From the NCBI GenBank assembly GCA_964626845.1, contig CAZVGR010000014.1, positions 12,570 to 76,569 on the forward strand: a stretch of DNA of 64,000 nt, read 5' to 3'. The notes under the pieces were generated by a model. The model did not search any database. It had not been told where the DNA came from and saw only the letters and a program-made list of their open reading frames with translations. Numbering within the stretch: position 1 is the stretch's first letter; every line of letters starts with the position of its first letter. This stretch comes from an uncultured Anaerolinea sp. (GTDB taxonomy: Bacteria > Chloroflexota > Anaerolineae > JAAEKA01). A program made the translations under genes and the position numbers. Positions 7,111-63,268 of the stretch are shown in pieces.

Positions 7111-7216
7111 GGGGAGTTGCAAGTTGCAGGTGGCAAGTTGCAGGTGGCAAGTTGCAGGTGGCAAGTTGCAGGTTGCAGGTGGCAAGTTGCAAGTTGCAGG
7201 TGGCAAGTTGCAGGTA
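7111..7216. repeat. Tandem ~14-bp (two heptamer) repeat (GCAAGTTGCAGGTG)n
   Basis: About 7.5 direct units visible in sequence. Confidence 0.9.
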
Positions 7217-7242
7217 GATGCATAAACAGCACAGACAAACGC

Positions 7243-7382
7243 CCTTGTCTACTTGCCTACTTGCCTACTTGCCTACTTGCCTACTTGTCTACTTGTCTAC
7301 TTGCCTACTTGCCTACTTGTCTACTTGCCTACTTGCCTACTTGCCTACTTGCCTACTTGCCTACTTGCCTACTTGCCTACTG
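7243..7382. repeat. Tandem octamer repeat (CTACTTGC/CTACTTGT) x17; reverse complement of the GGCAAGTAG family
   Basis: Direct inspection. Partially complementary to the 7111-7216 array. Confidence 0.9.
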
Positions 7383-13309: not shown

Positions 13310-13377
13310 TGATTGGGTGACTGGGTGATTGACTGCCACCCTTGCCACCTGCCACCTGCATCCTGCAACCTGCAACC
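13310..13377. repeat. Heptamer tandem repeats (TGGGTGA, then TGCCACC/TGCAACC)
   Basis: Direct inspection. Occupies the junction between the permease and ATPase genes. Confidence 0.8.
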
Positions 13378-16830: not shown

Positions 16831-17259
16831 ATGAACTACGTCTTTCCCACCACCAACCCACGCCGCTACCGCTTCCCCACCCACGCCAACGACCTGGTGA
16901 TGGACCGCGCCGAGGCGGCCACCAGCGAGGTCTTCATCGTCGAGATGGCGCCGGGCGAGGCGCCGCCGCGCCACCACCACGACGACATGGAGCAGATCTT
17001 CTACGTGCTGGCCGGCCAGGGCCGGCTGGAGATCGGCGACCCCACCGAGAGCGCGACGATCCATCCCGGCGACGTGGTGCGTATCCCCGTCTCCACCTGG
17101 CACACCGTCCACTGCCTGGGCGACGAGCCCTTACGCTACCTGGCCGTGGACTGCTTCATCGCTGGCCGTCCCGCCGCCGAGCCCACCTGGGACGACCACG
17201 TGCGCGTGGTGTGCCAGGAGCAAGGCTGGGACTACGATACCATCAGAAATGGTCAATGA
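16831..17259 (+). CDS. Cupin domain protein
   Basis: 142 aa. Cupin motifs (PPRHHHDDMEQIFYVLAG ... PVSTWHTV). Confidence 0.7.
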   Translation: MNYVFPTTNPRRYRFPTHANDLVMDRAEAATSEVFIVEMAPGEAPPRHHHDDMEQIFYVLAGQGRLEIGDPTESATIHPGDVVRIPVSTWHTVHCLGDEPLRYLAVDCFIAGRPAAEPTWDDHVRVVCQEQGWDYDTIRNGQ

Positions 17260-17345
17260 TCAATGGTCACTTGCCAATTGTCAATACTCAGAGCTTGCCA
17301 GCCATTGACAATTGACCATTGGACATTGAGATTTGGACATTAATC

Positions 17346-18530
17346 ATGCGCATCACCCCCCGCTTCCCCGACCTCCTCGCGATTTACCGCGCCGAGCTGC
17401 TGGAGCGCGTCGTGCCCTTCTGGCTGCGCCACGCCATCGACCGCCAGCACGGCGGCCTGTTGACCTGCATCGCCGACGACGGGGCCGTGCTGAGCACCGA
17501 CAAGTATCTCTGGTCGCAACTGCGCGCCGTCTGGACCTTCTCCGCGCTCTACAACCGCATCGAGCCGCGGCCGGAGTGGCTGGACGTCGCCCGCCACGTC
17601 TACGACTTTGCCAGCCGCTATGGCCGCGACGACGAGGGGCGCTGGGCCTTCGCCGTGGATCAGGACGGCCGCGTGCTGCAAGGCGCGGACAGCATTTTTG
17701 CCGACGGCTTTGCCATCTACGGCCTGACCGAGCTGGCCCGCGCCACCGGCGACCAGGCTGTCATCGACCTGGCGCTGGCGACCTACGCCAACGTGCAGCG
17801 GCGGCTGGCTGCGCCTGGATCCTACGGCATCGGCCCCTTCACCCTGCCTCCTGACGCCAAGGCCCACGCCGTCTCCATGATCTTTGCCCTGGTCTTCGAC
17901 GAGCTGGGCCAGTTGCTGGGCGACCAGGCCATCATCGCGGCCGGCCGCGCCCATGCCGATGAGGTGATGGACGCCTTCCTACGGCCCGACCGGCGCGTGC
18001 TCTACGAGTATGTCCACCTGGATAACACACTGATCGACACCCCGCAGGGCCGCGCAATCGTGCCCGGCCACGCCATCGAGTCCATGTGGTTCATGATTGA
18101 GATCTACCAGCGGGCCGGCCAGCCTGAGCGCGTCTGCCAGGCCGTGGAGGCGATCCGCTGGCACCTGGAGCTGGGCTGGGACGACGAGTACGGCGGCATC
18201 GTCCACGCCCGCGACGCGGCCGGCGGGCAGCCCTGGTGGCGCTTCGCCGACGCCAAGCTGTGGTGGCCGCAGACCGAGGCGCTGACCGCCCTGCTACTGG
18301 CCTGGGAGCACAGCCGCGAGCCGTGGTGCCTGGACTGGTTCGCCCGCGTCCACGACTATGCTTTCCACCACTACCCGGTGCCGCAGCATGGCGAATGGAC
18401 CCAGCGCCTGGACCGCCAGGGCCGCCCCTTCAACGCGACCGTGGCCCTGCCCGTCAAGGACCCGTTCCACCTGCCGCGCGCGCTGATCTACTGTGTTGGC
18501 GCGTTGCAGCGGCTGGCGGGGCAGGCGTAA
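17346..18530 (+). CDS. N-acylglucosamine 2-epimerase (AGE) family protein
   Basis: Start ATG 17346 (MRITPRF). (alpha/alpha)6-barrel AGE-family motifs. Confidence 0.8.
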   Translation: MRITPRFPDLLAIYRAELLERVVPFWLRHAIDRQHGGLLTCIADDGAVLSTDKYLWSQLRAVWTFSALYNRIEPRPEWLDVARHVYDFASRYGRDDEGRWAFAVDQDGRVLQGADSIFADGFAIYGLTELARATGDQAVIDLALATYANVQRRLAAPGSYGIGPFTLPPDAKAHAVSMIFALVFDELGQLLGDQAIIAAGRAHADEVMDAFLRPDRRVLYEYVHLDNTLIDTPQGRAIVPGHAIESMWFMIEIYQRAGQPERVCQAVEAIRWHLELGWDDEYGGIVHARDAAGGQPWWRFADAKLWWPQTEALTALLLAWEHSREPWCLDWFARVHDYAFHHYPVPQHGEWTQRLDRQGRPFNATVALPVKDPFHLPRALIYCVGALQRLAGQA

Positions 18531-18640
18531 TGCGTAATGCGTAACCCGTAACCCGGAAAGGCTCGCCGACGAGATCTCTGGTTACGGATTACGAGTTACG
18601 TGTTACGAGTTACGAGTTACGAGTTACGTGTTACAAGCAA
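18529..18640. repeat. Inverted heptamer arrays (TAATGCG/TAACCCG ... GTTACGA/GTTACGT) flanking hairpin core CGTAACCCGG...GGTTACG
   Basis: Direct inspection. Confidence 0.85.
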
Positions 18641-20077: not shown

Positions 20078-21250
20078 GTGAAACGTGATGAAGCGGCGCC
20101 GCTGGCGCTGGTCAACGGGCGCATCGTGCTGCCCGACCGGGTGGTGGATGGCCGGGCGCTGTTGGTTGCGGATAGCAAAATTGTGGCTGTGGTCGCGCTG
20201 GACGAGCTGGCCGCGGACACAGCCCGCCTGGACGTGGGCGGCCGGCTCGTCACACCCGGCCTGATCGACATCCACACCCACGGCGCGCTGGGCCACACCT
20301 TCAACGAGCCCACGGCTGAGGCATTCGCGACGATCACGGCCGAGAACCTGCGCCGCGGGGTCACGTCGCTGCTGGCCACCACCGCCACCGCGCCCATCGA
20401 CGACCTGGTGGCCTGCCTGGAGTTCGCCCGCGGCTGGATGGCTGCGCCCCAGGCCGGCAGCCAGGTGCTGGGCGTCCACCTGGAAGGCCCGTACTTCCAT
20501 CCCGCCAAGGCCGGCGCGCAGGACCCGGCTGCGCTGCGCACCCCCGACGACGGCTCGGTGGATCACCTGCTGGCCCACGCGGACGTGGTGCGCATGATGA
20601 GCTACGCGCCGGAGCTGCCGGGCGCGCTGGCGCTGACCGAGCGGCTGGCGAAGCTGGGCATCGTCCCGGCCGCCGGCCACAGCAATGCCCGCGACACGGA
20701 CTTGGAGGCCGCCATGCAAGCCGGTCTGCGCCACATCATCCACGTCTGGAGCGCGCAATCGACCACCGTGTACGAGGGCGCATGGCGCAAACCGGGCCTG
20801 CTGGAGGCGTCGTTGGCCTTCGACGGCCTGACGGTGGAGATGATCGCCGACCACAAGCACCTGCCGCGCACCCTGATGCGGCTGGCCTACAAGGCCATTG
20901 GCCCCGACCGGCTGTGCATCGTCTCCGACGCCACCAGCGGCGCGGGCCTGCCTGAGGGCAGCCGCTTCCGCATGGGCGCGCTGGAGTACGTGGTCGAGGA
21001 CGGCGTGGGCATGATGCTGGACCGCTCCTCCTTTGCCGGCAGCAGCACGCTGCTGAACCAGATGCTGCCCGTGCTCGTCGACGTGGTGGGCATCCCGCTG
21101 GCCGAGGCCGTGCGCATAGCCACCCTCAATCCGGCGCGCGTCATCGGCGCGGATAATCGCAAGGGCAGCCTGGAGCCGGGCAAGGATGCCGACATCGCCA
21201 TCTTCGACGCTGACTTCACCGCCTGGCACGTGCTGGTCGGCGGACGGTAA
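20078..21250 (+). CDS. nagA: N-acetylglucosamine-6-phosphate deacetylase (amidohydrolase)
   Basis: GTG start. Metal-binding HTHG, NagA-like EGPYF and AAGHSNA motifs. Confidence 0.8.
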   Translation: MKRDEAAPLALVNGRIVLPDRVVDGRALLVADSKIVAVVALDELAADTARLDVGGRLVTPGLIDIHTHGALGHTFNEPTAEAFATITAENLRRGVTSLLATTATAPIDDLVACLEFARGWMAAPQAGSQVLGVHLEGPYFHPAKAGAQDPAALRTPDDGSVDHLLAHADVVRMMSYAPELPGALALTERLAKLGIVPAAGHSNARDTDLEAAMQAGLRHIIHVWSAQSTTVYEGAWRKPGLLEASLAFDGLTVEMIADHKHLPRTLMRLAYKAIGPDRLCIVSDATSGAGLPEGSRFRMGALEYVVEDGVGMMLDRSSFAGSSTLLNQMLPVLVDVVGIPLAEAVRIATLNPARVIGADNRKGSLEPGKDADIAIFDADFTAWHVLVGGR

Positions 21251-21310
21251 TCGGTGATCAGTAACCGGTCACCGGTCACGGATTACCGATCACCAAATCT
21301 GGAGCCAACC

Positions 21311-22087
21311 ATGTCATCCCCCATCCACCAAATCACCATCGACCAACTTCCCGTGCGCGTCTATGCCAGCAACGAGGCCATGGGCCAGGCTGCGGCAGTG
21401 GAGGCTGCGGCGGTAATCCAGCGGGCCATCGCCCAGCGCGGCGCAGCCAACGTCATCCTGGCCACGGGCAACTCGCAGCTCACCTTCTTGCGCAGCCTAC
21501 GCGAAAACCAGGATATCGAATGGCGGCATGTGCGCGTTTTCCACATGGACGAGTACGTGGGCCTCGACCCGCAGCACCCTGCCAGCTTTCCGCTCTTCCT
21601 GCGCCGCCATTTCCTGGACTACGTGGACGTGGGCGCGTTCTTCCCCGTGGCCGCGCCGGTCGAGGACACCGAGGCCGCCTGCCGGGCCTACGAGTCGTTG
21701 TTGCGCCATCACCCGGCCGACCTGTGCGCCTGCGGCATCGGCGAGAACGGCCACCTGGCCTTCAACGATCCGCCCTACGCCGACTTCGACGATCCCGTTT
21801 GGGTCAAGGTGGTGCAGTTGGACGAGCGATCGCGGCGCCAGCAGGTAGGCGAGGCCCATTTTACCACCCTGGACGAGGTACCCACCCACGCCGTCACCCT
21901 GACCATCCCCGCGCTGCTGGCCGCCGGGACCGTGCTGTGTATCGTCCCAGAAGCCCGCAAAGCCGAGGCCGTCCAGGCCAGCCTGCGCGGCCCGATTACC
22001 GAGGACTGCCCCGCGTCGATCCTGCGCACGCAGGCCCACGTCCGGCTGTATCTGGATCCGGAGTCGGGTAAATTGGTAAATTGGTAG
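21311..22087 (+). CDS. nagB: Glucosamine-6-phosphate deaminase (NagB/6-phosphogluconolactonase family)
   Basis: Start ATG 21311 (MSSPIHQ). Motifs ILATGNSQ and FHMDEYVGL. Confidence 0.8.
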   Translation: MSSPIHQITIDQLPVRVYASNEAMGQAAAVEAAAVIQRAIAQRGAANVILATGNSQLTFLRSLRENQDIEWRHVRVFHMDEYVGLDPQHPASFPLFLRRHFLDYVDVGAFFPVAAPVEDTEAACRAYESLLRHHPADLCACGIGENGHLAFNDPPYADFDDPVWVKVVQLDERSRRQQVGEAHFTTLDEVPTHAVTLTIPALLAAGTVLCIVPEARKAEAVQASLRGPITEDCPASILRTQAHVRLYLDPESGKLVNW

Positions 22088-22178
22088 ATTGGTAGATTGG
22101 TCATGACTCGCCGCGCGACAACATCACCAATCTACCAATCTACCAATCACCAATCTACCAATCTACCATTCACCAACC
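22075..22178. repeat. Inverted arrays of (TTGGTAAA / TTGGTAGA) and complementary (CAATCTAC / CAATCAC) hepta/octamer repeats
   Basis: Direct inspection. Forms a long imperfect palindrome between nagB and the downstream URO-D gene. Confidence 0.85.
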
Positions 22179-23327: not shown

Positions 23328-24325
23328 AAGTTCTCTTTATCGGCGGCACCGGCGTGATCAGCTCGGCCTGCACAGAGTTGGCCGTGCAGCAGCACATCGA
23401 CCTGTATCTGCTCAACCGCGGGCAGAGCACGGCGCGGCCGGCGCCCATCGGCGCAACGGTGCTGCACGGCGACATCCGCGACCCGGCCAGCGTCGAAGCC
23501 GCTCTGCGCGGCCACAGCTTCGACGTGGTGGTGGACTGGATCGCCTTCACGCCCCAGCATGTGCAGACTGACATCGACCTGTTCCGGGGCCGCGTGGGCC
23601 AGGTCATCTTCATCAGCTCGGCCTCGGCCTATCAGACCCCGCCGGCCAGCCTGCCCGTCACCGAGTCGACGCTGCTGGACAACCCTTTCTGGGAGTACTC
23701 GCGCCAGAAGATCGCCTGCGAGGAGCTGCTGGTGCGGGCTTACCGCGACGAAAAGTTTCCCATGACCATCGTGCGCCCCTCGCACACCTACGACGCCACC
23801 AAGATACCGCTGTTGGGCGGCTACACCAGCCTCAAGCGCATGAAAGAGGGCCGGCCGGTGCTGGTCTACGGCGACGGCACATCCTTGTGGACGCTGACCC
23901 ATACGCGCGACTTCGCCACCGGCTTCGTCCCGCTGCTGGGCAACGCCCGCGCCATCGGCGAGGCGGTGCATATCACCTCCGACGAATGGCTGACCTGGAA
24001 CCAGATCTACCAGACCATGGCCGCGGCGCTGGGCGTGGAGGCCAGGCTGGTCCACGTGCCCAGCGAGCTGATCAACGCTTACGACCCGCACCACGGCGAG
24101 GGCCTGCTGGGCGACAAAAGCCACAGCATGATTTTCGACAACAGCAAGATCAAGCGTCTGGCCCCCGGCTTTGCCTGCACCACCCCCTTCGCCTGGGGCG
24201 CCCGCGAGATCGTCGCCTGGCACGAGGCCGACCCGGCCCGGCAGGGGATCGACCCGTACGTGGAGACGTTGATCGAGCGGGTGCTGGCGGCGTATGAGAA
24301 GTGCTGGCCGGGCAGTAATGCGTAA
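23324..24325 (+). CDS. NAD-dependent epimerase/dehydratase (SDR family)
   Basis: ATGA overlap with the upstream stop. Rossmann motif LFIGGTGVISS. Confidence 0.8.
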   Translation: MKVLFIGGTGVISSACTELAVQQHIDLYLLNRGQSTARPAPIGATVLHGDIRDPASVEAALRGHSFDVVVDWIAFTPQHVQTDIDLFRGRVGQVIFISSASAYQTPPASLPVTESTLLDNPFWEYSRQKIACEELLVRAYRDEKFPMTIVRPSHTYDATKIPLLGGYTSLKRMKEGRPVLVYGDGTSLWTLTHTRDFATGFVPLLGNARAIGEAVHITSDEWLTWNQIYQTMAAALGVEARLVHVPSELINAYDPHHGEGLLGDKSHSMIFDNSKIKRLAPGFACTTPFAWGAREIVAWHEADPARQGIDPYVETLIERVLAAYEKCWPGSNA

Positions 24326-24412
24326 CTCGTAACTCGTAACCCGGAATTCGGAGACTCGTGCAGGCCGACTCCGGGTTACGCATTACGAGTTACGGGTTAC
24401 GGGCGCATCCAA
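24307..24412. repeat. Heptamer arrays (TAACTCG/TAACCCG ... TTACGAG/TTACGGG) around hairpin CGTAACCCGGAA...TCCGGGTTACG
   Basis: Same family as 18529-18640 and 63195-63268. Confidence 0.85.
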
Positions 24413-25476: not shown

Positions 25477-25609
25477 CAGAGACCCGGTGAATAGAATTCA
25501 CCGTCTGACAACACCAAGGCCCCTCAGGGCCTGCCTCCCCAGCGGCTGAGGCCGCTTCGTCCTGTTCAGCCAGGGATTTCCAATCCCTGACGTTTGTACC
25601 GAGCAAACC

Positions 25610-27022
<1,413 letters not shown>

Positions 27023-27039
27023 AGCTTTCCCTCACCCCA

Positions 27040-27125
27040 GCCCTCTCCCAGAGGGAGAGGGAGTCCGGAATCCGGAATCCGGAGTCCGGTCCCCTCTCCC
27101 TCTGGGAGAGGGTTAGGGTGAGGGC
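27040..27125. terminator. Long near-perfect palindrome (~33-bp arms) with a (TCCGGAA)n heptamer loop; candidate terminator after uxaC
   Basis: ccctcaccccagccctctcccagagggagaggg ... ccctctccctctgggagagggttagggtgaggg. Confidence 0.5.
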
Positions 27126-29011: not shown

Positions 29012-29206
29012 ATGATCAACACCAAAGCACAGCCCGACCGCCACAGCGAGACCGTCGCCGAAGGCAAGACGGTCGCCTACTGCCGCTGCTGGCAGTCAGG
29101 CAAGTTCCCTTACTGCGACGGCACCCACCGCAAAGTGAACGCCGAGACCGGCGACAGCGTCGGCCCGGTGATCGTCAAAGGCGGCGCGGTCGAAGACGCC
29201 AGCTAG
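29012..29206 (+). CDS. CDGSH-type iron-sulfur domain protein
   Basis: 64 aa. [16 protein letters not shown] motif. AAAGGA SD. Confidence 0.75.
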
Positions 29207-29221
29207 GTATGCAGAGCGCCA

Positions 29222-29255
29222 AAGATGACATGTCTCGGAAGACATGTCATCTTTC
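29222..29255. repeat. Perfect 14-bp-arm palindrome AAAGATGACATGTC-tcggaa-GACATGTCATCTTT (member of the GAGATGACATTTCT family)
   Basis: Direct inspection. Related copies at 47303 and 54355. Confidence 0.8.
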
Positions 29256-29279: not shown

Positions 29280-30659
29280 ATGGCCGCTGACACGCTGTTG
29301 ATCCACAACGGCGCCGTCTGCACCTTTGGCGATGCCAACCAGGTGATCGACGACGGCGCGGTGCTGGTCGAGAATGGGCAGATTGCTGCCGTTGGCAGGG
29401 GCGACGAGCTGAAGCGCGCCTATCCGGACGCGCGGCGCGAGGACGCGGGCGGCAAAGTGCTGATGCCCGGCAACATCTGCTCGCACACCCACTTCTACGG
29501 CGCGTTCGCGCGCGGCCTGTACATCCCCGGCCCGGCGCCCAAGGATTTCCCCGAGATCCTGCGCCGGCTGTGGTGGACGCTGGACATGGCGCTGGACGAC
29601 GACGGCGTGCTGTACAGCGCGTTAGTCTGCCTGGTGGACGCGATCCGCAACGGCACGACCACCCTGTTCGACCACCATGCCAGCCCCAACGAGATCGACG
29701 GCAGCCTGGACATCATCGCCGGCGCGGTGGAGGCGGCCGGGCTGCGGGCGGTGTTGTGCTACGAGGTAACCGACCGCAACGGGCCAGAGGGCACGGCGGC
29801 CGGGATTGCTGAGAACGTGCGCTTTATCAAGGGGCAGCGGGCTCGATCAGGAGACCGGCCCGAGCAGGTGATGCTGTCAGGGCTGTTTGGGCTGCACGCA
29901 TCGCTGAGCCTGAGCGACGAGACCCTGGCGCAGTGCGTGGCCGAGGCCGAAGCGTTGGGCGATGTCGGCTTTCATGTCCACGCGGCCGAGGGGCCGGCCG
30001 ATCAGGAGGACAGCCTGGCCAGATACGGTCTGCGCACCATCGACCGCCTGCGCGCCCGGGGCGTGCTCAACCCGCGCAGCATCGTGGCCCACGTGACGGC
30101 CATTGACGGCTGGGAGATGGCCGCGCTGCGCAAGAGCGGCGCCTGGGTGACGCATCAGCCGAGGAGCAACATGAACAACGCGGTGGGGGTGGCCGACGTG
30201 CCGGCCATGCTGCGCGGCGGCATGCCGGTGCTGCTGGGCAACGATGGCTTCTCCAACGACATGTTCACGGAGATGAAGACCGCCTACTTATTACACAAGG
30301 CCTGGCGCAACGACCCGCGCGCCATGCCCGGCAACCAGGTGATCGACATGGCCTACCGCCACAACGCCCGCCTGGCGGCGCAACACTTCCCGCTGCCGCT
30401 GGGCGAGATCAGCGTGGGCGCGGCGGCCGACCTGATCCTGCTGGACTACTACCCCACCACCCCCATGACGGCCGACAACCTGCCCTGGCACATCCTCTTC
30501 GGCGTCAGCGGCAGCCACGTGACGCATACCATGGTCGCCGGCAAATGGCTGATGAAAGAGCGCGCGCTGTTGACCCTGGACGAGGCTGCGATCACCGCGC
30601 AGAGCCGCACAGTGGCCAAGGCAACCTGGGAGCGATTCTGGGAGTTGAGTGGGAAGTAG
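29280..30659 (+). CDS. Amidohydrolase family protein (chlorohydrolase/SsnA/aminodeaminase-like)
   Basis: Start ATG 29280 after GGAGG. Metal-binding HTH and later His motifs. Confidence 0.7.
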   Translation: MAADTLLIHNGAVCTFGDANQVIDDGAVLVENGQIAAVGRGDELKRAYPDARREDAGGKVLMPGNICSHTHFYGAFARGLYIPGPAPKDFPEILRRLWWTLDMALDDDGVLYSALVCLVDAIRNGTTTLFDHHASPNEIDGSLDIIAGAVEAAGLRAVLCYEVTDRNGPEGTAAGIAENVRFIKGQRARSGDRPEQVMLSGLFGLHASLSLSDETLAQCVAEAEALGDVGFHVHAAEGPADQEDSLARYGLRTIDRLRARGVLNPRSIVAHVTAIDGWEMAALRKSGAWVTHQPRSNMNNAVGVADVPAMLRGGMPVLLGNDGFSNDMFTEMKTAYLLHKAWRNDPRAMPGNQVIDMAYRHNARLAAQHFPLPLGEISVGAAADLILLDYYPTTPMTADNLPWHILFGVSGSHVTHTMVAGKWLMKERALLTLDEAAITAQSRTVAKATWERFWELSGK

Positions 30660-30720
30660 GGAAGTAGGCAAGTGGCAAGTGGCAAGTAGGCAAGTGGCAA
30701 GTAGGCAAGTGGCGAGTGGT
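30650..30720. repeat. Tandem GGCAAGT(A/G) hepta/octamer repeat x9
   Basis: Same unit family as the reverse-complement array at 7243-7382. Confidence 0.85.
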
Positions 30721-31770: not shown

Positions 31771-32823
31771 ATGCCAACCCCCCGCCCCGGTCCGGTGGTT
31801 TTGTTTGGTTCTGGCGAGACCTCGGCCAACGGCCAAAAAGCCTTCGATTGGGTCTTTCGCAGGCAGGACCAGCCTTTGCGAGTGGCGATTCTGGAGACGC
31901 CGGCCGGCTTCGAGTTGAACTCGCAGCAGGTAGCACAGCGCATCGCCGACTTCCTGCGCCAGCGCTTGCAGAACTACGCGCCGCAGGTGACGTTGGTTCC
32001 GGCCCGCCGCCGCAACACGCCATGGAGCCCGGAAGAGCCAGATGTGGTTGCGCCGCTGCTGCACAGCAACGTGATCTTCCTCGGTCCTGGCAGCCCCAGC
32101 TATGCCGTTCGACAACTGCACGATAGCCTGGCCTGGCACATGCTGCGCAGCCGGCAGCGCTTGGGCGCAGCCGCGGCGCTGGCCAGCGCTGCTACTGTGG
32201 CCGCTGGCGCCTACGCGCTGCCGGTCTACGAGATCTATAAAGTCGGCGAGGACCTGCACTGGAAGCCGGGGCTGGACCTGTTTGCCGACTTCGGTCTGAA
32301 GCTGGCAATCGTGCCGCACTGGAACAACACCGACGGCGGCGCAGAACTGGATACCAGCCGCTGTTTCATGGGGCGGGCGCGCTTTGAGCCGCTGCTGGCT
32401 ATGCTGCCCCCCGACGTGGTCGTTCTGGGCGTGGACGAGCAGACGGCGCTGGCCATGGACCTGGTAAATGGAACCGGCCATGTGTTGGGCGCGGGCAGTG
32501 TAACAGTGCTGGCTGCAGGCGCGAGCCAGGTTTTCAGCCGCGGCGAGAGCCTGCCTTTGGCCGCGCTAGGGCCTTTTTGCCTGCCGGAGGCAGGGTACGG
32601 CATTCCTGCGCCGGTCTGGCAGCAGGCGATGGAAGCAGCGGCAACGAGCCCGCAGGCAGTAGAGCCGCCGCCAGAAATCCTTGAGCTGGCCAGCCGACGC
32701 CAGCAGGCGCGCGAGCGGCGTGATTGGGCTACGGCCGACGCGCTGCGCAGCGAGATCGAAGCGCTAGGCTGGCTCGTACAGGACACGGCGGAGGGGCCGC
32801 GAGTGTCCGGGAAAAATGGTTAA
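31771..32823 (+). CDS. Hypothetical two-domain protein: peptidase S51/cyanophycinase-like (class I glutamine-amidotransferase-like) N-domain + CysRS C-terminal-like motif
   Basis: C-terminal 'RRQQARERRDWATADALRSEIEALGWLVQDT' resembles the cysteinyl-tRNA synthetase C-terminal domain. N-domain assignment weak. Confidence 0.4.
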   Translation: MPTPRPGPVVLFGSGETSANGQKAFDWVFRRQDQPLRVAILETPAGFELNSQQVAQRIADFLRQRLQNYAPQVTLVPARRRNTPWSPEEPDVVAPLLHSNVIFLGPGSPSYAVRQLHDSLAWHMLRSRQRLGAAAALASAATVAAGAYALPVYEIYKVGEDLHWKPGLDLFADFGLKLAIVPHWNNTDGGAELDTSRCFMGRARFEPLLAMLPPDVVVLGVDEQTALAMDLVNGTGHVLGAGSVTVLAAGASQVFSRGESLPLAALGPFCLPEAGYGIPAPVWQQAMEAAATSPQAVEPPPEILELASRRQQARERRDWATADALRSEIEALGWLVQDTAEGPRVSGKNG

Positions 32824-32868
32824 TGGGTGAATTGGTGAATGGTGAATTGTTAACAAGGAGTGTGTGGC

Positions 32869-41997: not shown

Positions 41998-42023
41998 ACG
42001 GTCTGGCAGCGCCCGAAACCAGC

Positions 42024-42071
42024 GGCGGCCAGGATGCTTGGAGATGAGAATCCAAGCATCCTGGCCGCCGC
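42024..42071. terminator. Perfect 20-bp-stem palindrome (cggcggccaggatgcttgga-gatgagaa-tccaagcatcctggccgccg) between convergent genes
   Basis: Direct inspection. Likely bidirectional terminator. Confidence 0.55.
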
Positions 42072-42086
42072 TCCCTTTGCACAGTT

Positions 42087-47136: not shown

Positions 47137-47302
47137 GTCGTATTCCTTGACGCCTGCGGGTTACATGCAGGGCGAGTGGGATTTGTTCGCAGGAGGAGAC
47201 GGCCTGCGAAGATGGGATGGTTCCCGTTGTTGGCTTGCAGTGTAGCCGGGGAGATAGAAGGAGTCAAACTGCGGGGAATGGGTTTGCCGGGGATGAGAGT
47301 GA

Positions 47303-47338
47303 GAGATGACATTTCTTCCGCAGAAATGTCATCTCTGA
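47303..47338. repeat. Palindrome AGAGATGACATTTCT-tccgcag-AGAAATGTCATCTCT (GAGATGACATTTCT family)
   Basis: Direct inspection. Lies between the dinB-like operon end and the sigma gene. Confidence 0.8.
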
Positions 47339-47356: not shown

Positions 47357-47845
47357 TTAACGCTCTAGCTCATCGAAGTACGCCCAACTATCCAGCTCCG
47401 GCGGCTCGATGCCCAGTTGCGTCAGAATGGCCATGACCTGGGCGCGGTGCTCGGTGGCATGGTTGATGGCCTGGGTGAGCAGGATTGTCTTGGGCACGTC
47501 GCGCAGCACGCCGTCCCAGTCGATCTCTACCACGTCGCCGGCCTGCACCTGGGGCGCCCAGTCGACCAGGCCGGCGCCGCTGGCGCGCGTCCATGCGAGC
47601 ATCTCGGCCAGGGTCAGCGGCGGCGCATCGGCGGGATGGCGGTACGGCCGGCCGGTGCTGATGCGGGAGAAATAGGAGCGCTCGGCGCTGACGATATGCT
47701 GCAAGGTGTCGCGGATCGAGCCGAACGTGCCCAGCAGCGTGGCGTCCAGTTGTTCGTCGCTCAGCCCGGCGCACAGCTCGATGAGGCGCTCGTTGGCCCA
47801 CAGGTTGTGACGGAAGAGGGTGGTGAGGGTGTCGGTAGGGTTCAT
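47357..47845 (-). CDS. DinB/YfiT-like (DinB_2) family protein
   Basis: Start ATG 47845 (MNPTDT) after GGAG. The ORF extension to 48346 is spurious. His-rich DinB-fold motifs. Confidence 0.65.
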   Translation of the reverse strand: MNPTDTLTTLFRHNLWANERLIELCAGLSDEQLDATLLGTFGSIRDTLQHIVSAERSYFSRISTGRPYRHPADAPPLTLAEMLAWTRASGAGLVDWAPQVQAGDVVEIDWDGVLRDVPKTILLTQAINHATEHRAQVMAILTQLGIEPPELDSWAYFDELER

Positions 47846-53902: not shown

Positions 53903-54207
53903 GTAACTGCTCAGCCGGCCGGTCAGAAACCGGGTTTTTCTCGTTGGGCAATGATTTCTGAGTTTGCAAACGCATTGCTCGGGGCTATGATAGCCGCTTC
54001 CGCAGCAAAAACCCGGTTTCTCTAAGGAGCTGTTTAAAAAGCCCGGCAGCGTCGGAATCAGAGGTTGAAACCATCTGGCTGAAAGTACGAAGCGGCCTCA
54101 GCCGCTGGATTCCAGGCCCTGAGGGGCCTTCGTGCTGTCAGCCGGTGGGTTTCCAACCACCGATCCGGGGCTTTTCAAACAGCCTCTAAGCCCAGCCTGA
54201 GCAGTAA
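53903..54207. mobile_element. Left copy of a ~140-bp MITE (TIR TAACTGCTCAG.../...CTGAGCAGTAA), interrupted by a nested MITE
   Basis: Reverse-complement match (1 mismatch) to 60237-60376, split by the 54026-54183 insertion. Confidence 0.7.
54026..54183. mobile_element. Nested 158-bp MITE with ~16-bp TIRs (GCTGTTTAAAAAGCCC / GGGGCTTTTCAAACAGC) and 7-bp target-site duplication CTCTAAG
   Basis: CTCTAAG at 54019-54025 and 54184-54190. The right MITE copy at 60237-60376 has a single uninterrupted CTCTAAG. Confidence 0.7.
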
Positions 54208-54354
54208 CCAGCTACCTAATAATTCGCGGGAATGCCGGCCGTCATATCCCGCTATTGCTCCATCGCCTACCGCTGACGGCCAGTCCATAGTGGCCGCCAT
54301 TGTACCATTTCACCCGTGGGAGGGCAAAAGGGCGCGTTCCGGGCTGCCCAGGGC

Positions 54355-54390
54355 GCGAGAGATGCCATTTCTGCGGAAGAAATGGCATCT
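54355..54390. repeat. Palindrome GAGATGCCATTTCT-gcggaag-AGAAATGGCATCTC (GAGATGACATTTCT family) just downstream of the LTD gene stop
   Basis: Direct inspection. Confidence 0.8.
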
Positions 54391-54410
54391 CTTCGCGTCA
54401 CGCCACCACC

Positions 54411-57400
54411 CTACCGGATTGACAACCACGCATCCCACAGAGTCGCCAGCGCCGGCGGCCGCACGGTCAGCACCGCACCAGTGAGGGGCAGGAAGACGGG
54501 CGCGCGGTTCCAGGCCGTGTCGTCCTGCACGCCGTTGCTGTAGGCTGTCCCGTTGGCGCGGCCGGCCGCGGCAGCCCGGCCGCGCTGCAAGTCGGCCTCG
54601 CGGCGCGGCAGCAGGCGATAGCCGCTCTCGGTCTGGCTGACCACGCCCACCACCGTCCACACCTCGCCGATGTTGACGTAGGGCCGGCGGATGCCGGTCG
54701 CAGGCCGGATGGTGATGCGCGCCTCGCCGCTGCCGTCGTCCAGATAGAGGGTGGTTTCCTTCCAGAAGCCGGTGATGGGGCCGCTGAGCTGCACCAGCCG
54801 GCCCTCGTTGGCCTCGGCCACCTCGCCCGTGCGGATAGGCAGCGGCGCAGGCGGCGCGGCCGGCTGCATGGTCTTGATGTCGTCGATGCGCACCAGGCTG
54901 ATCTGCCGCTCCTCGTAGAAGGTGCCCAGCCGGCCGTTGACTCGCACCCACTGCCCCTCGCTGAGCGGCGGCCACTGGGCCGAACGCAGGAAGACCCGCA
55001 TGCCGCCCGTGGCATCCTGGATGTAGATCTCCTGGTCGTCAAAGACGTTGGGCAGCGCCGTCACCTGGCCCTCCAGCGTCAGCCGCGTGCCGTCGGGCAG
55101 GCTGCGGGCGTGGGCGATGGTCGCCAGGTCGAAGTTGAAGCGGTCGTAGGGCTGTCCACTGCCCGACCCGCCGCCGCTACTGCTTCCACCGCCGCCGCCC
55201 GATCCGCCGCCGCTGTTGGGGTCGGCCGCGTTGGCCTGGCCTGGCGTTTCGATGCAGTCGCGGGACCACTCGCCCACGCCATCGGGCAGTCGGCACCAGG
55301 ATTGGTCATAGCCGGAGAAGACATTGTAGCTCATGCTGTCGGCCAGACTATTGTCCGGGTAGAGCAAGCGCACCTGTTCGCTGCTGGCGTCCAGCGCCAA
55401 GCCGCTCTGAGCGCGGTAGATCACCAGATAGCCCTGGGCCGGCAGCACAAGACCAGAGGGCAGGATGTAGGTCCGGTCTGGCTCATGGCTGGCTGGCTGG
55501 CCATCAGCCAGCTTCCAACCGGCCAGATCGACTGGCTCCTCGCCCAGATTTGTCAACTCGATCCACTCGTCCAGATAGCTTGGGACGCCGTTGCCGTCCC
55601 AGTCCACGTTCTGCGGCGAGGGCAGCACCTCGTTCAGCCGCACGGTGGTGGCCACCGGCGTCGGCGTCAGTTGCGGCGTCGCGGTGGGCGTCGGCGTGGG
55701 CGTGCCGCCGGGCGTGTTGCTGCCGCCGGGCGTGGGCGGGTAGCTGCGCGTCCACTCTGCGCCGCCGTCCACCGTCTTACTGGCGGCCTGATCGTCGCGG
55801 CTGCTGCTGTACTGGGTCTCCTCCACCACCAGGCCATCGGGCCGCAGCAGCCGCACCCAGTCGCCGTCGTTGTTCAGGGCGATGCCGGTCTGGCTGCGGA
55901 AGAAGAGCAGGAAGCCGCGGGCCGGGATGGTCGCGCCGGGCGGCAGGGTGTAGGGCGCTGAGCCGCCGCTCGCCACGTCGTCCAACTGCCAGCCGCTCAG
56001 ATCGACCGCGAAGTCGTTGGCGTTGTATAGCTCGATGTACTCATCGTCCTGGTTGGCTGCGCCGTCGCCGTTCCAATCGGAGGCGGGGTCGGGCATGTAC
56101 TCGTTCAGGCCGACGCCATCAGGATAGACGCCGGGCGTAGCCGTCAGCGTGGCAGTCGGTGTTGGCGTCGGGGTCGCGGCCTGGTTGGACGCGCCGGGCG
56201 AGGGCGGGTAGGCCATCGTCCACTGGTCGCCGCCGTCCACCGTCTTGCTGTAACTGACGTCGGCCGGCGCGGCCGTGTAGCTGTGGTTCTCCACCTCCAC
56301 GCCGTCGGGCCGCAGCAGCCGCACGCTGTCGCCGCCGCTGTTGTTGAGGGCGATGGCCGTGTCCCGGCTCCACAGGGTTAGGAAGCCTTGCGCCTCGATC
56401 ACCGCGCCGGCCGGCAAGGTGTAGGGCGACGACCCACCGCCCGCCACATCGTCCACCTGCCAACCGCTTAAGTCGACGGCGAAGTCGTTGGCGTTGTAGA
56501 GCTCGATGTACTCGTCGTTGGCGTCGCCCACGATGCCATCGCCGTTCCAGTCGGCCTCGGGGTTGGGCATGAACTCGTTGAGCACAATGCCATCAGGGTA
56601 GACCACGGGCGTACCGGTGGGCGTGGCGGTCGGGGTAGGCGTGGCCGTAGGGGTGTTGGCAGCCTGGTTGGACGCGCCGGGCGAGGGTGGGTAGCTCATC
56701 GTCCATTCGTCGCCGCCATCTGTGGTCTTGCTGTAGCTGACGTCGGCCGGCGCGGCTGTGTAGGGGTGGTTCTCCACCTCCACACCGTCGGGCCGCAGCA
56801 GCCGCACGCTGTCGCCGCCGCTGTTGTTGAGGGCGATGTTCGTGTCGCGGCTCCAGAACACCAGGAAACCTTGCGCCTCGATCACCGCGCCAGCCGGCAA
56901 GGTATAGGGGGACGAGCCGCCGCCGGCGACGTCGTCTACCTGCCAGCCGCTCAGGTCGACGGCAAAATCGTTGGCGTTGTAGAGCTCAATGTACTCGTCG
57001 TTGGCGTCGCCCCGGATGCCGTCTTCGTTCCAGTCAGCCTCGGGATTGGGCATGAACTCGTTGAGCACGATGCCTTCGGGATAGTCTACCGGCAGCGGGG
57101 TTGGCGTGGGCGTCGGCGTGCCGGCCGGCTGGTTGGATGCGCCAGGCGAGGGCGGATAGTCCGTCGTCCACTGGTCGCCGCCGTCCACGGTCTTGCTGTA
57201 GCTCACATCGGCCGGCGCGGCCGTGTAGCTGTGGCTCTCCACCTCCACACCGTCGGGGCGCAGCAAGCGCACGCTGTCGCCGCCGCTGTTGTTGAGAGCG
57301 ATGTTTGTGTCCCGGCTCCAGAACACCAGGAAGCCTTGCGCCTCGATCACCGCGCCAGCAGGCAAGGTATAGGGGGACGAGCCGCCGTTGGCGATGTCAT

Positions 57401-60173
57401 CCAACCGCCAGCCGCTCAGGTTGACGGGGAAGTCGTTGGCGTTGTACAGCTCGATGTACTCGTCGTTGGCGTCGCCAATGATGCCATCTTCGTTCCAGTC
57501 GGCCTCCGGGTTGGGCATGAACTCGTTGAGCACGATGCCGTCAGGGTAGACCACGGGCGTGCCGGTGGGCGTGGCCGTCGGGGTAGGCGCGGCCGTGGGA
57601 GTGTTGGCGGGCCGGTTGGGCGCGCCGGGCGAAGGCGGATAACTGCGCGTCCACTGGCTACCGCCGTCCACAGTCTTGCTGTAAGCCTCATCGTCGCGGC
57701 TGCTGGGATATTCGACCTGCTCGACGACTGCCCCATCAGGCCGCAGCAGGCGCACCCAGTCGCCGTCGTTGTTGAGCGCAATGCCGCTCTGGCTGCGAAA
57801 AACCAGCAGAAAGCCGCGCGCCTCAATGATTGTGCCGGTGGGCAGGATGTAAGGCGGGCTGCCGCTGGGCGTGAAGGGCGAGCGAAGCTGGCCAAAGCCA
57901 TCGTCTACGTCGTCCAGGCGCCAGCCGCTGAGATCGACGGCAAAGTCGTTGGCGTTGTACAGCTCGATATATTCGTCGTTCAGATCAGCCGTGCCGTTGC
58001 CGTCCCAATCGGAGGCGGGGTCGGGCATGAATTCGTTGAGGCTGATGCCATCAGGATAGACGCCGGGGGTGGCTGTTGGCGTCGCAGTCGGCGTTGGGGC
58101 CGGTTGGTTGGATGCGCCAGGCGAGGGCGGGTGGGTCATCGTCCACTGGTCGCCGCCATCCTCTGTTTTGCTGTAGGCCACGTCAGCCGGCGCGGCGGTG
58201 TAGCTGTGGCTCTCCACCTCCACGCCGTCGGGCGTCAGCAGACGCGCTGCATCGCCGCCGCTGTTGTTGAGGGCGATGCGCGTGTCCCGGCTCCAGAACA
58301 CCAGGAAGCCCTGCGCTTCGATCACTGTGCCGGCCGGCAGGGTGTAGGGGGACGAGCCGCCGCTGGCGATGTCGTCCAGTTGCCAGCCGCTCAGGTCCAC
58401 AGCGAAGTCGTTGGCGTTGTACAGCTCGATGTACTCGTCGTTAGTGTCCCCCAGGATGCCGTCGTCGTTCCAGTCGGCCTCCGGGTTAGGCATAAACTCG
58501 TTCAGGCTGACGCCTTCCGGGTAGGGCGTAGGCGAGGCGGCGGGCGTCGTTGCAGATGTGGGCGATGGCGTCGCCGTTGGCGTGGGCGTAGGTGTGGCCG
58601 TTGGCGTAATCGTGGGCGTGGCTGTCCAGGCCGGCGGCTGGTTGGATGCGCCAGGCGACGGCGGGTAGGCCATGGTCCATTCTGCGCCGCCGTCCACGGT
58701 CTTACTGTAACTCACGTCAGCCGGCGCAGCCGTGTAGAAGTGGCTTTCGACCTCCACCCCGTCCGGCCGCAGCAGCCGCGCCCAGTCGCCGCCGCTGTTG
58801 TTGAGCGCGATGCCGGTGTCCCGGCTCCACAGCACCAGATGGGACTGCGACTCGATCCAGGCGCCGGCCGGCAGGGTGTAGGGCGCTGATCCGCCGTTAG
58901 CCACGTCGTCCAGCATCCACCCACCGATGTCCACGGCAAAGTCGTTGGCGTTGTAGATCTCGATGTACTCGTCGTTGCCGTCGCCCAGAATGCCGTCGTT
59001 GTTCCAGTCGGCCTCCGGATTGGGCATGAACTCGTTCAGGCTGAGGCCGGTGGGATAGACGGCCGGGGTGGCCGTGTGGGTGGGGGTTGGGGGCGGCGCG
59101 GGTTGGTTGGAAGCGCCCGGCGAGGGCGGGTAGGTCATGGTCCAATCGCTGCCGCCATCCACCGTTTTGCTGTAGGCCACGTCAGCCGGCGCAGCGGTGT
59201 AGCTGTAGCTCTCGACCTCAACACCGTCGGGCCGCAGCAGACGCACCATGTCGCCGCCGCTGTTGTTGAGCGCAATGCGAGTATCCCGGCTCCACAGCGC
59301 CAGGAAGCCATGCGCCTGGATCGTCGTGCCAGCAGGCAAGGTGTAAGGCGACGAGCCGCCGTTGGGTATGTCATCCACGCGCCAGCCGCCCAAATCAACG
59401 GCAAAATCGTTGGGATTATACAGCTCGATGTACTCGTCGTTGGCGTCGCCGAAAATGCCGTCGTCGTTCCAGTCGGCCTCGGGGTTGGGCATGAACTCGT
59501 TGAGGTGGATGACAAGCGGCGCGGGGGTGGGCGAAGGAGTCGCAGTGGGCGTGGGCGTGGCGGTGGCTGGCCCTGGCGGCTGATTGGCGGCGCCTGGCGA
59601 GGGTGGGTAATCAGCCGTCCACTGGTTGCCGCCATCGACTGTTTTGCTGAAGGCCCCATCCGCTTGGGTCTGGGTGTAGCTGAAGCTCTCAACAGGGACA
59701 TCGTCCGGCGTCAACAGGCGCACCGCGCCGCTGCTGTCGTCCAACTCAAGGCCTGTTTGGACACCCCACAGCACCAAATGACGCTGCGCGCGCAGCACTG
59801 TACCAGGAGGCAGCGCATAGGGCGGCAAGCCGCTGCTCTCGCCAGCGTCCAGCTTCCACCCGCTGATGTCCACGTCGAAAGGGTTGGCGTTATAAAGCTC
59901 GATGTATTCGTCGTTGTTGCCGCCCGTCACCCCATCGCCGTTCCAGTCATACACCGGCTGTGGCATTAACTCGTTGAGGACAACGCCGCCAGGATAGCTG
60001 CTCTGAGCAGCCGCAGGCAGCACCCCTGCGCCACGCGCGATCTGTGGGCCGAGAACGAGCAGCAGAACACTGCCGGCTGTCAGCAGGCCGGCGATCCAGG
60101 AACGATACGATGCACGACAAGACGACATGATCCCACCTCCACAAAGCTGTCTGGCAGGCCGATCCCACGACAC
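54411..60173 (-). CDS. Secreted giant protein with ten tandem lamin-tail-domain (LTD) repeats, Thr/Pro linkers, a Gly/Ser-rich linker and a C-terminal OB-fold-like domain
   Basis: 1920 aa. Signal peptide. Ten copies of 'LNEFMPNPEADWN.DG..GD.NDEYIELYNANDFAVDLSGW.LDD...GGSSPYTLPAG' (LTD/PF00932-like), each followed by a PTPTATP linker. ~450-bp near-identical DNA periodicity. Confidence 0.8.
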   Translation of the reverse strand: MSWDRPARQLCGGGIMSSCRASYRSWIAGLLTAGSVLLLVLGPQIARGAGVLPAAAQSSYPGGVVLNELMPQPVYDWNGDGVTGGNNDEYIELYNANPFDVDISGWKLDAGESSGLPPYALPPGTVLRAQRHLVLWGVQTGLELDDSSGAVRLLTPDDVPVESFSYTQTQADGAFSKTVDGGNQWTADYPPSPGAANQPPGPATATPTPTATPSPTPAPLVIHLNEFMPNPEADWNDDGIFGDANDEYIELYNPNDFAVDLGGWRVDDIPNGGSSPYTLPAGTTIQAHGFLALWSRDTRIALNNSGGDMVRLLRPDGVEVESYSYTAAPADVAYSKTVDGGSDWTMTYPPSPGASNQPAPPPTPTHTATPAVYPTGLSLNEFMPNPEADWNNDGILGDGNDEYIEIYNANDFAVDIGGWMLDDVANGGSAPYTLPAGAWIESQSHLVLWSRDTGIALNNSGGDWARLLRPDGVEVESHFYTAAPADVSYSKTVDGGAEWTMAYPPSPGASNQPPAWTATPTITPTATPTPTPTATPSPTSATTPAASPTPYPEGVSLNEFMPNPEADWNDDGILGDTNDEYIELYNANDFAVDLSGWQLDDIASGGSSPYTLPAGTVIEAQGFLVFWSRDTRIALNNSGGDAARLLTPDGVEVESHSYTAAPADVAYSKTEDGGDQWTMTHPPSPGASNQPAPTPTATPTATPGVYPDGISLNEFMPDPASDWDGNGTADLNDEYIELYNANDFAVDLSGWRLDDVDDGFGQLRSPFTPSGSPPYILPTGTIIEARGFLLVFRSQSGIALNNDGDWVRLLRPDGAVVEQVEYPSSRDDEAYSKTVDGGSQWTRSYPPSPGAPNRPANTPTAAPTPTATPTGTPVVYPDGIVLNEFMPNPEADWNEDGIIGDANDEYIELYNANDFPVNLSGWRLDDIANGGSSPYTLPAGAVIEAQGFLVFWSRDTNIALNNSGGDSVRLLRPDGVEVESHSYTAAPADVSYSKTVDGGDQWTTDYPPSPGASNQPAGTPTPTPTPLPVDYPEGIVLNEFMPNPEADWNEDGIRGDANDEYIELYNANDFAVDLSGWQVDDVAGGGSSPYTLPAGAVIEAQGFLVFWSRDTNIALNNSGGDSVRLLRPDGVEVENHPYTAAPADVSYSKTTDGGDEWTMSYPPSPGASNQAANTPTATPTPTATPTGTPVVYPDGIVLNEFMPNPEADWNGDGIVGDANDEYIELYNANDFAVDLSGWQVDDVAGGGSSPYTLPAGAVIEAQGFLTLWSRDTAIALNNSGGDSVRLLRPDGVEVENHSYTAAPADVSYSKTVDGGDQWTMAYPPSPGASNQAATPTPTPTATLTATPGVYPDGVGLNEYMPDPASDWNGDGAANQDDEYIELYNANDFAVDLSGWQLDDVASGGSAPYTLPPGATIPARGFLLFFRSQTGIALNNDGDWVRLLRPDGLVVEETQYSSSRDDQAASKTVDGGAEWTRSYPPTPGGSNTPGGTPTPTPTATPQLTPTPVATTVRLNEVLPSPQNVDWDGNGVPSYLDEWIELTNLGEEPVDLAGWKLADGQPASHEPDRTYILPSGLVLPAQGYLVIYRAQSGLALDASSEQVRLLYPDNSLADSMSYNVFSGYDQSWCRLPDGVGEWSRDCIETPGQANAADPNSGGGSGGGGGSSSGGGSGSGQPYDRFNFDLATIAHARSLPDGTRLTLEGQVTALPNVFDDQEIYIQDATGGMRVFLRSAQWPPLSEGQWVRVNGRLGTFYEERQISLVRIDDIKTMQPAAPPAPLPIRTGEVAEANEGRLVQLSGPITGFWKETTLYLDDGSGEARITIRPATGIRRPYVNIGEVWTVVGVVSQTESGYRLLPRREADLQRGRAAAAGRANGTAYSNGVQDDTAWNRAPVFLPLTGAVLTVRPPALATLWDAWLSIR

Positions 60174-60236: not shown

Positions 60237-60376
60237 TTACTGCTCAGGCTGGGCTTAGAGAAACCGGGTTTTTGCTGCGGAAGCGGCTATCATAGCCCCG
60301 AGCAATGCGTTTGCAAGCTCAGAAATCATTGCCCAACGAGAAAAACCCGGTTTCTGACCGGCCGGCTGAGCAGTTA
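60237..60376. mobile_element. Right copy of the ~140-bp MITE in inverted orientation, with 9-bp target-site duplication CGGCGTTTG
   Basis: CGGCGTTTG directly flanks both ends (60228-60236 and 60378-60386). Internal hairpins (gcaatg...cattgc; gctatgatagc). Confidence 0.7.
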
Positions 60377-60439
60377 CCGGCGTTTGTTGTAATGGGGCTG
60401 ACGCCGGCGCTGCTATGGGGCGCCGATTCCAGCCTGAGC

Positions 60440-60485
60440 GGAGAAACAAAAACGGCTGCGGGCCTTCCAGGCCGCCCGCAGCCGT
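60440..60485 (-). terminator. Rho-independent terminator (stem CGGCTGCGGGCGGCC/GGCCCGCAGCCG followed by TTTTTGTTT on the minus strand)
   Basis: GC-rich hairpin plus U-tract immediately after the 60497 stop. Confidence 0.65.
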
Positions 60486-60496
60486 CTCACCAACCT

Positions 60497-63139: not shown

Positions 63140-63194
63140 GGGGAGATCTCCGGGCTGTGGGTTGTGAGCTTGGTTGGTTGTCGATGGCGATCCG

Positions 63195-63268
63195 AAGTGA
63201 TGCGTAACGAGTACTGCGTAACCCGGAATCGCGCATGGCGTCTCCGATTACGTGTCACTCGTTACGTA
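63195..63268. repeat. GCGTAAC(C/G)... heptamer/hairpin element (GCGTAACCCGGAATCG ... CGATTACG ... CGTTACG)
   Basis: Same family as 18529-18640 and 24307-24412. Confidence 0.75.

Follow-up and report, generated by a model that had tools for sequence, protein, structure and literature searches.

Three hairpins of one family in a 64-kb window

The DNA analysed here, hereafter the window, is a 64-kb stretch of 65% G+C, a value that holds for the genome likewise, in which three genes are followed by a copy of one hairpin whose stem has about 40% G+C. The first copy (c1) follows a CDGSH gene (Pfam; stop TAG at 29204-29206) and precedes an ssnA-like amidohydrolase gene, whose ATG (29280) lies 25 nt past the hairpin and whose ribosome-binding site, GGAGGA, is directly 3' of it; homologues of this ssnA belong to Anaerolineae and Caldilineales MAGs, which makes the host a member of the Chloroflexota, of a kind represented by metagenome assemblies only. 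The second copy (c2) follows a DinB gene on the minus strand (stop TAA at 47357-47359), with the start of an ECF sigma gene (47136) 166 nt past the hairpin, and the third (c3) follows the minus-strand gene of a 1920-aa LTD (lamin-tail-domain) protein (stop TAG at 54411-54413). The three hairpins and two promoter-like sites are located as follows.

29221-29254, + strand: hairpin c1, AAAGATGACATGTCT-CGGA-AGACATGTCATCTTT; arms 29221-29235 and 29240-29254, loop CGGA
47302-47336, - strand: hairpin c2, AGAGATGACATTTCT-TCCGC-AGAAATGTCATCTCT; arms 47302-47316 and 47322-47336, loop TCCGC (+ strand)
54358-54392, - strand: hairpin c3, AGAGATGCCATTTCT-GCGGA-AGAAATGGCATCTCT; arms 54358-54372 and 54378-54392, loop GCGGA (+ strand)
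47239-47267, - strand: promoter-like site TTGACT-17-TACACT, 35 nt past c2 and before the ECF sigma gene; consensus match only
54299-54327, - strand: promoter-like site TTGCCC-17-TACAAT with TG, 30 nt past c3; consensus match only

An initial annotation, made by reading the window alone, had described three palindromes with mutually complementary loops, close behind stop codons and without a U-tract. All three were found where it had placed them, with gaps of 14 nt (c1), 20 nt (c2) and 18 nt (c3) from the stop codon; no T-run follows any of them, and none was called terminator-like. The loops had been read as 6-7 nt but are 4, 5 and 5 nt long in c1, c2 and c3, and each stem is a perfect duplex of 15 bp. 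The complementarity of the loops is borne out by c2 and c3, as TCCGC is the exact reverse complement of GCGGA. The stems of c2 and c3 differ by a single compensatory pair, A:T to C:G, and that of c3 is extendable to ~54351-54399 via flanking GCGCG/CGCGT.

The full palindrome pattern had no match in 100 dinucleotide shuffles, and the 10-mer RAGATGMCAT occurs 6 times in the window, against 0.45 expected, all six occurrences being hairpin arms. A chance origin of the three hairpins is excluded. The RNA of the transcribed strand is predicted to fold at -21 to -31 kcal/mol (c1, -20.8, z -5.9; c2, -22.2; c3, -30.7), with z-scores of -5.9 to -7.0. No additional copy was found in the window with a covariance model; c1-c3 are solitary there, and BIME-like clustering is absent from it.

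Other hairpins and repeats in the window

The window is rich in other intergenic repeats. Strong hairpins at the same post-stop position as the family are found at 17241-17348, 18525-18634, 21245-21294, 22067-22176, 24315-24403 and ~63190-63270; their arms consist of tandem 7-8 nt units (GTAATGC/GTAACCC, ATTGGTAG, CAATGGT), and their sequence differs at each site. Intergenic tandem arrays of 7-8 nt units with no obvious hairpin partner occupy 7119-7381, 13343-13377, 30648-30719 and 32815-32849, examples being CTTGCCTA (17 units), GCAAGTT/GCAGGTG (14 units) and AAGTAGGC/AGTGGCA (9 units). Past the gene that ends at 27022 there is a hairpin (27029-27124) with arms of 33 nt, 94% complementary, about -93 kcal/mol and GGAATCC tandem repeats at its tip, and a perfect 22-bp hairpin lies between convergent genes at 42021-42072. 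A canonical G+C-rich terminator hairpin followed by TTTTTGTTT is present on the minus strand at ~60443-60487, past gene 60497-61693, so this organism does use classical intrinsic terminators.

Longer repeats were also observed. Two 124-nt copies, 99% identical and inverted, stand on either side of the LTD gene and c3 (53903-54026 and 60254-60377); this unit has terminal inverted repeats of 15 nt (AGAAACCGGGTTTTT...AAAAACCCGGTTTCT) besides a promoter-like site and thus resembles a MITE. At 54075-54147 and 25499-25573 lie inverted copies, 87% identical, of an intergenic repeat some 75 nt long that contains many short G+C hairpins (GGCCCCTCAGGGCC, CAGCGGCTGAGGCCGC). Inside the LTD gene itself, a tandem repeat with a period of 483 nt (55724-58502; 5.8 copies, 73% matches) corresponds to the repeated lamin-tail domains.

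Distribution and sequence conservation of the family

A scan of genomes, one per species, with the pattern AGATGNCATNTCT-N3-7-AGANATGNCATCT gave 87 matching stretches. They come from 44 assemblies, which represent at least seven phyla, and 18 of these assemblies carry two copies or more. The carriers, labelled as in their records, belong to Bacteroidota (Cytophagales, Chitinophagaceae, Saprospiraceae and the isolate Spirosoma terrae), Ignavibacteriota, Gemmatimonadota, Chloroflexota, Patescibacteria (Peregrinibacteria among them), Pseudomonadota (Thiomargarita and Chromatiales) and Bdellovibrionota; the MAGs CAXUKO01, JANMNW01 and CAZOSP01 are among the carriers. The family core was also present in more than 120 metagenome contigs, where one variant, AGAGATGCCATTTCT-TCA/TGA-AGAAATGGCATCTCT, makes up 65 of 148 copies among the matches listed; its arms are those of c3, and its contigs have 60-70% G+C. 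For the G+C-rich metagenome organism with high copy numbers, a hybrid histidine kinase was uninformative as to identity, its closest named matches being from Gammaproteobacteria. Up to eight exact copies per MAG were counted in 8-kb samples, and three are present in the 64 kb of the window. Thus, the copies are widespread instead of few and local.

The unit that emerges is a palindrome of 33-35 nt, in which A-N-AGATG-N-CAT-N-TCT is followed by a spacer of 3-5 nt and by its exact reverse complement. Several positions left free by the search pattern agree among the copies: the outer A..T pair is found in 84-90% of them, the pair next to it is complementary in nearly all, and the free position in CATNTCT is a C in about 70%. 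The same features hold in assemblies with a single hit (outer A..T in 20 of 26, next pair complementary in 22 of 26, CATCTCT in 19 of 26), which identifies these single hits as family members and not as products of chance. By estimate, with each genome taken to have about 100 perfect 13-bp hairpins and the match probability to be 4^-11, chance hits in the scan would be few. The proposal of the initial annotation that the stem sequence is conserved, and that the copies are a family and not three generic terminators, is therefore upheld by the presence of one core in 44 assemblies and by the agreement at positions that the search did not impose.

The stem is exactly 15 bp long in 48 of 91 copies. 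Its three free pairs covary, with 98.4% of cells paired and 100 double-sided changes, a number reached by none of 500 shuffles, and no slid register came close. Few G-U pairs occur, and the copies show no strand asymmetry of the kind that would establish selection on RNA over DNA.

No Rfam model matched the window at its gathering score, and nothing relevant was obtained at E<=1 for eight loci from five phyla. The family was not found in viral contigs or, by blastn, in phage and plasmid collections. Six sequence strings searched in the full-text literature matched only unrelated primers or oligonucleotides, and a keyword search for palindromic repeats of Anaerolineae gave nothing relevant.

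Position and orientation of the copies relative to genes

Most copies in other genomes are intergenic, and their placement is not random. Stems mostly begin 0-40 nt past the stop codon (median about 18 nt). In the genome set (88 copies) we counted 22 convergent, 29 co-directional and 3 divergent contexts, and divergent contexts accounted for 2 of the 148 metagenome copies among the matches listed. In the isolate Spirosoma terrae KCTC 52035, convergent genes enclose each of two copies, one near position 6,500 of NZ_JAAFZH010000015 and one near position 35,400 of NZ_JAAFZH010000003. In the 77 upstream proteins, which range from housekeeping enzymes to transporters and secreted proteins, 108 Pfam families are represented; the 25 commonest include no transposase. 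When neighbouring ORFs were clustered all against all, only common families recurred, namely T9SS tails, ABC ATPases, ECF sigma factors and one unannotated cluster from 18 loci. Two arrangements involve paired copies: at locus L132 (2316-3518), from the G+C-rich metagenome organism with high copy numbers, copies are interspersed in a nif cluster, where they flank nifX-like and DUF269 genes, and at locus L126 the hairpin stands on both sides of a BrnT/BrnA toxin-antitoxin pair.

Over the 8 nt past the stem, T makes up 0.32 of the bases in low-GC loci (background 0.30) and, slightly raised, 0.30 in high-GC loci (background 0.20). Placement at the end of a transcription unit is seen for c2 and c3, where the promoter-like sites come next, but not for c1. 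Of 40 co-directional cases, 12 have a following ORF that begins 12-60 nt past the hairpin; for c1 and for this approximate third of the co-directional copies a start codon so near leaves no room for a promoter, and full termination there is unlikely.

The orientation of the loop with respect to the upstream gene is random (TCA 11 and TGA 10 times; TAA 3 and TTA 3 times), implying that the element is functionally symmetric. This accounts for the complementary loops of the initial annotation, which are those of a symmetric DNA palindrome read either way, or of a spacer flip.

Orthologous sites in related genomes

Two of the hairpins have counterparts at orthologous sites of the Anaerolineae MAG JBAQCH01. 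At locus L090 the c2 hairpin is identical in 35 of 35 nt, loop included, and the ECF sigma gene, its leader and the promoter-like TTGACT-17-TACACT are 95-98% identical, with 98% conservation around the promoter-like site, whereas the 28 nt directly past the hairpin are only ~68% identical. Homology stops at the upstream edge of the hairpin (47337, transcribed minus strand), and the preceding gene is DinB in the window and glyoxalase-like in L090. This break, together with the different preceding genes, indicates that the hairpin marks the boundary of a rearrangement or an insertion. At locus L015 of the same MAG the site of c3 is occupied by a family hairpin whose loop differs and whose stem carries two compensatory pair changes; the end of the LTD gene aligns, and the TACAAT -10-like element and flanks are conserved, as is part of the -35-like hexamer. 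Such identity and compensation argue that the hairpin is selected or homogenised where it is present.

The site of c1 is different. In a Caldilineales relative (L216; 82% ssnA identity) the gap between CDGSH and ssnA is 10 nt with no hairpin, and no copy was found with the covariance model in 56 kb from three relatives with 82-92% ssnA identity. In one of these three, a close relative (L215, 9660-9990), a different palindromic tandem array, with about six copies of GCTCGGGCCGGTCTCCGACCGAGC, lies upstream of ssnA, so related genomes occupy one niche with different repeats. Close relatives have thus acquired or lost the hairpin, and it can lie at the boundary of a rearrangement.

Arrays, half units and mosaics in other genomes

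Where copies are numerous, they form higher-order arrangements. Tandem pairs that include a few flanking bases have periods of 43-63 nt (46 nt in L096, 63 nt in L155), and three 15-mer units in tandem with an 18-nt period were also found. Permuted arms occur as well, as do half-unit arrays of AGAGATGCC plus 6 nt, which have no hairpin potential; these arrays give a hint that the word itself, and not the hairpin alone, may be recognised. The family also forms mosaics with other palindromes (GAAGACCTGTCAGGTCTTC, TTACCGTGAAAGTTCACGCCC), and companion palindromes such as AGACCTGTCAGGTCT share its layout, AGA-NNNG-N-CNNN-TCT. Among 58 oriented copies from the G+C-rich metagenome organism with high copy numbers, 56-58 have the paired AG...CT ends; the flank logo of these copies has no unpaired GTAG/CGTC head, positions -3, +3 and beyond being variable, and such a head is absent from the copies of the genome set too.

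Longer genome-specific repeats that contain the hairpin occur in a few MAGs. In a Saprospiraceae MAG (L013, 7672-8000; L076, 1-710, a contig end), nine or more units, 105-170 nt in length, follow one another in tandem; each combines the family hairpin with a conserved 70-nt segment, and partial units are scattered among them. Another MAG (L008, 7090-8000; L050, 1-130) has 113-nt tandem units in which the hairpin is accompanied by extra AAGATnnnATCTT mini-palindromes, and a Patescibacteria MAG has a repeat of about 135 nt around the family hairpin as well as a second hairpin family, AGAGACGCGAT...ATCGCGTCTCT. Further loci with these last two kinds of repeat are L019, L078, L055 and L062. Each copy in one Cytophagales MAG forms the tip of a longer stem, the outer 10-20 bp of which vary among copies.

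Comparison with known repeat systems

The tandems and mosaics of the high-copy genomes match the organisation described for REP/BIME elements, and the likeness extends to the single unit. In the broad sense, REPs are extragenic palindromes of 20-40 bp, dispersed beside unrelated genes and assembled in clusters, dimers and mosaics. The family has a unit of 33-35 nt, all of its window copies are intergenic, its dispersed copies stand beside unrelated genes, and in other genomes it forms clusters, dimers and mosaics. Like REP/BIME elements it is multi-copy and found in 3' UTRs, convergent gaps and operon interiors, positions for which mRNA stabilisation, termination and effects on supercoiling have been proposed as roles of the known elements. 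On the other hand, the narrower definition by a GTAG/CGTC tag does not apply, as there is no unpaired tetranucleotide head; the CCA tail is likewise missing, and weak tests of the loci examined revealed no RAYT gene. The stem is a perfect 15 bp, compared with 8-12 bp, usually imperfect, in REPs, and the fully symmetric unit lacks the intrinsic orientation that REPs have.

REP-like families without a tag exist but are under-described, with examples listed from M. tuberculosis, D. radiodurans, Bordetella, Brucella and cyanobacteria, and REP superfamilies that span several phyla are documented (PMC3733652, Di Nocera et al. 2013). The untagged families are, like the present one, intergenic palindromes with no conserved terminal tag and no known dedicated transposase; they are described at the level of species or genus, whereas here a sequence of about 30 nt is common to seven phyla. 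The family is thus a new untagged member of the REP-like elements, notable for its perfect 15-bp stem and for one sequence shared by at least seven phyla: the kind of element is ordinary, and its distribution is unusually wide.

Two other systems offer partial likenesses. Intrinsic terminators, including those that consist of a hairpin only, are also stable hairpins a few nucleotides past the stop codon and can act in both directions between convergent genes; unlike them, the family has no U-tract, is conserved in sequence besides structure and has copies inside operons. The DUS of Neisseria and the USS of Haemophilus likewise place a conserved word as an inverted pair past genes, in a terminator-like hairpin. 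Uptake words, however, also occur in very many single copies, within genes included, and with seven phyla involved no single uptake system would account for the family.

Several more specific identities were considered and rejected. A CRISPR, prompted by the 63-nt period in L155, does not fit, as the "spacers" are conserved repeats, the periods range from 18 to 170 nt and the window copies are solitary. MITEs of 100-400 bp have terminal inverted repeats and a target-site duplication; here the unit is 33-35 nt, the flanks differ and no duplication is seen. A transcription-factor operator is contradicted by the rarity of divergent contexts (only 3 of 88 copies, and 2 of 148 among the matches listed), and a DNA uptake sequence by the confinement of AGAGATGMC and RAGATGMCAT in the window to the inside of the hairpins. 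A canonical intrinsic terminator was discarded on the negative U-tract test. The target hairpins of diversity-generating retroelements are not conserved in sequence, and the genes upstream of the family are unrelated housekeeping genes. Carry-over of Illumina adapters, suggested by CTCTTCCGA in some loops, was dismissed: the match is a coincidence over 9 nt, the loops are free to vary, and the element is present in genomes of isolates. The T7 class II terminator word ATCTGTT, seen in the Cytophagales variant, is coincidental and belongs to that one variant only.

Interpretation and alternatives

We consider it probable that the three hairpins are copies of a dispersed, untagged REP-like element and that, to judge from its position, the hairpin in the transcript marks and insulates the 3' ends of mRNAs. 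Three other explanations were weighed against this one. That the copies are plain transcription terminators, hairpin-only or factor-dependent, whose similarity is incidental or convergent and involves no repeat biology, is very unlikely. Their place directly behind stop codons and the promoter-like sites after c2 and c3 would suit such terminators, as would the unrelated strong hairpins at many other gene ends of the window. Yet the same sequence recurs in 44 assemblies with conservation at positions free of the search, tandem clusters, mosaics and half-units exist, and presence or absence differs between close relatives. The U-tract is missing in an organism that has a canonical T-run terminator at ~60443-60487, and 25 nt separate c1 from the following start codon.

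A non-autonomous mobile element, moved by an HUH/Y1 enzyme (RAYT, IS200/IS605) or by another transposase and affecting RNA only as a side effect, is a doubtful alternative, although it would agree with the patchy distribution among close relatives, the apparent insertion in the tight CDGSH-ssnA junction, the synteny break at the edge of c2, the sharp unit ends, the occurrence across phyla and the REP/RAYT precedent (PMC3733652). The unit is, however, perfectly symmetric, with no asymmetric GTAG/CGTC cleavage tag; target-site duplications are not visible; and the family is absent from viral contigs, phages and plasmids. No RAYT or Y1 transposase is encoded by the ORFs between paired copies, which are BrnT/BrnA, nifX-/DUF269-type and ZIP transporter genes, and none was found in 1.4 Mb of loci by tblastn, a weak test with an IS608 TnpA query. 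HUH-type mobilisation is possible but unsupported.

It is also rather unlikely, in our judgement, that the conserved word is first of all a protein-binding site in DNA or RNA, the hairpin being two inverted copies of AGAGATG-N-CATCTCT read by a factor for nucleoid structure or topology, termination or spreading. Several features speak for a word of this kind: the arms of the commonest variant are themselves palindromic (7-1-7; 56 of 81), three 15-mers can stand in tandem at an 18-nt period, some half-unit arrays are unable to form hairpins, companion palindromes match the layout (AGACCTGTCAGGTCT), the sequence is identical across phyla, and the AG...CT ends are invariant next to variable bases. 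But the high-copy CATTTCT/AGAAATG variants lose the palindrome within the arm and keep the complementarity between arms, no candidate protein recurs beside the copies, and in the window the word is confined to the hairpins. The data allow a binding site, and such a site and the REP-like explanation could both hold.

For the REP-like element, we propose the following mode of action. Either strand, once transcribed, would fold directly after a stop codon into a 15-bp hairpin (about -21 to -31 kcal/mol). With no U-tract, this hairpin is probably not a canonical intrinsic terminator; it would most likely set the 3' end of the upstream mRNA and shield it from 3'-5' exonucleases. At c2 and c3, partial or factor-assisted termination may insulate the next promoter, and at c1, inside an operon, the hairpin may separate the stabilities of two cistrons. 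This mode of action is consistent with the promoter-like sites 30-35 nt past c2 and c3 and with the retention of the hairpin-promoter-sigma block behind different upstream genes. At the DNA level, the element may multiply through local duplication, template switching at the palindrome or the action of a putative enzyme in trans; local duplication and palindrome-mediated template switching seem visible in the arrangement of the clusters. A purely structural role does not explain an identity of 30 nt across phyla. A putative sequence-specific factor, either a non-RAYT nuclease or transposase or a DNA- or RNA-binding protein at transcript ends, might read AGAGATG-N-CATCTCT, maintain and spread the element and have moved among at least seven phyla; we put this forward tentatively, as an improbable reading.

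REP-like repeats influence operon expression, mRNA decay and genome rearrangement, and to our knowledge they are known almost only from cultured Proteobacteria. The present family provides a defined 33-nt sequence common to uncultured Chloroflexota, Bacteroidota, Ignavibacteriota, Patescibacteria, giant sulfur bacteria and others, and its presence in at least one cultured species, Spirosoma terrae, makes it experimentally testable. Even if there is no cognate factor, the family would still be a useful marker for the annotation of 3' ends in MAGs without canonical terminators. If such a factor does read the word, the hairpin would be the visible half of a new repeat-plus-enzyme system, and very different bacteria would have had a route to gain one and the same transcript-end module.
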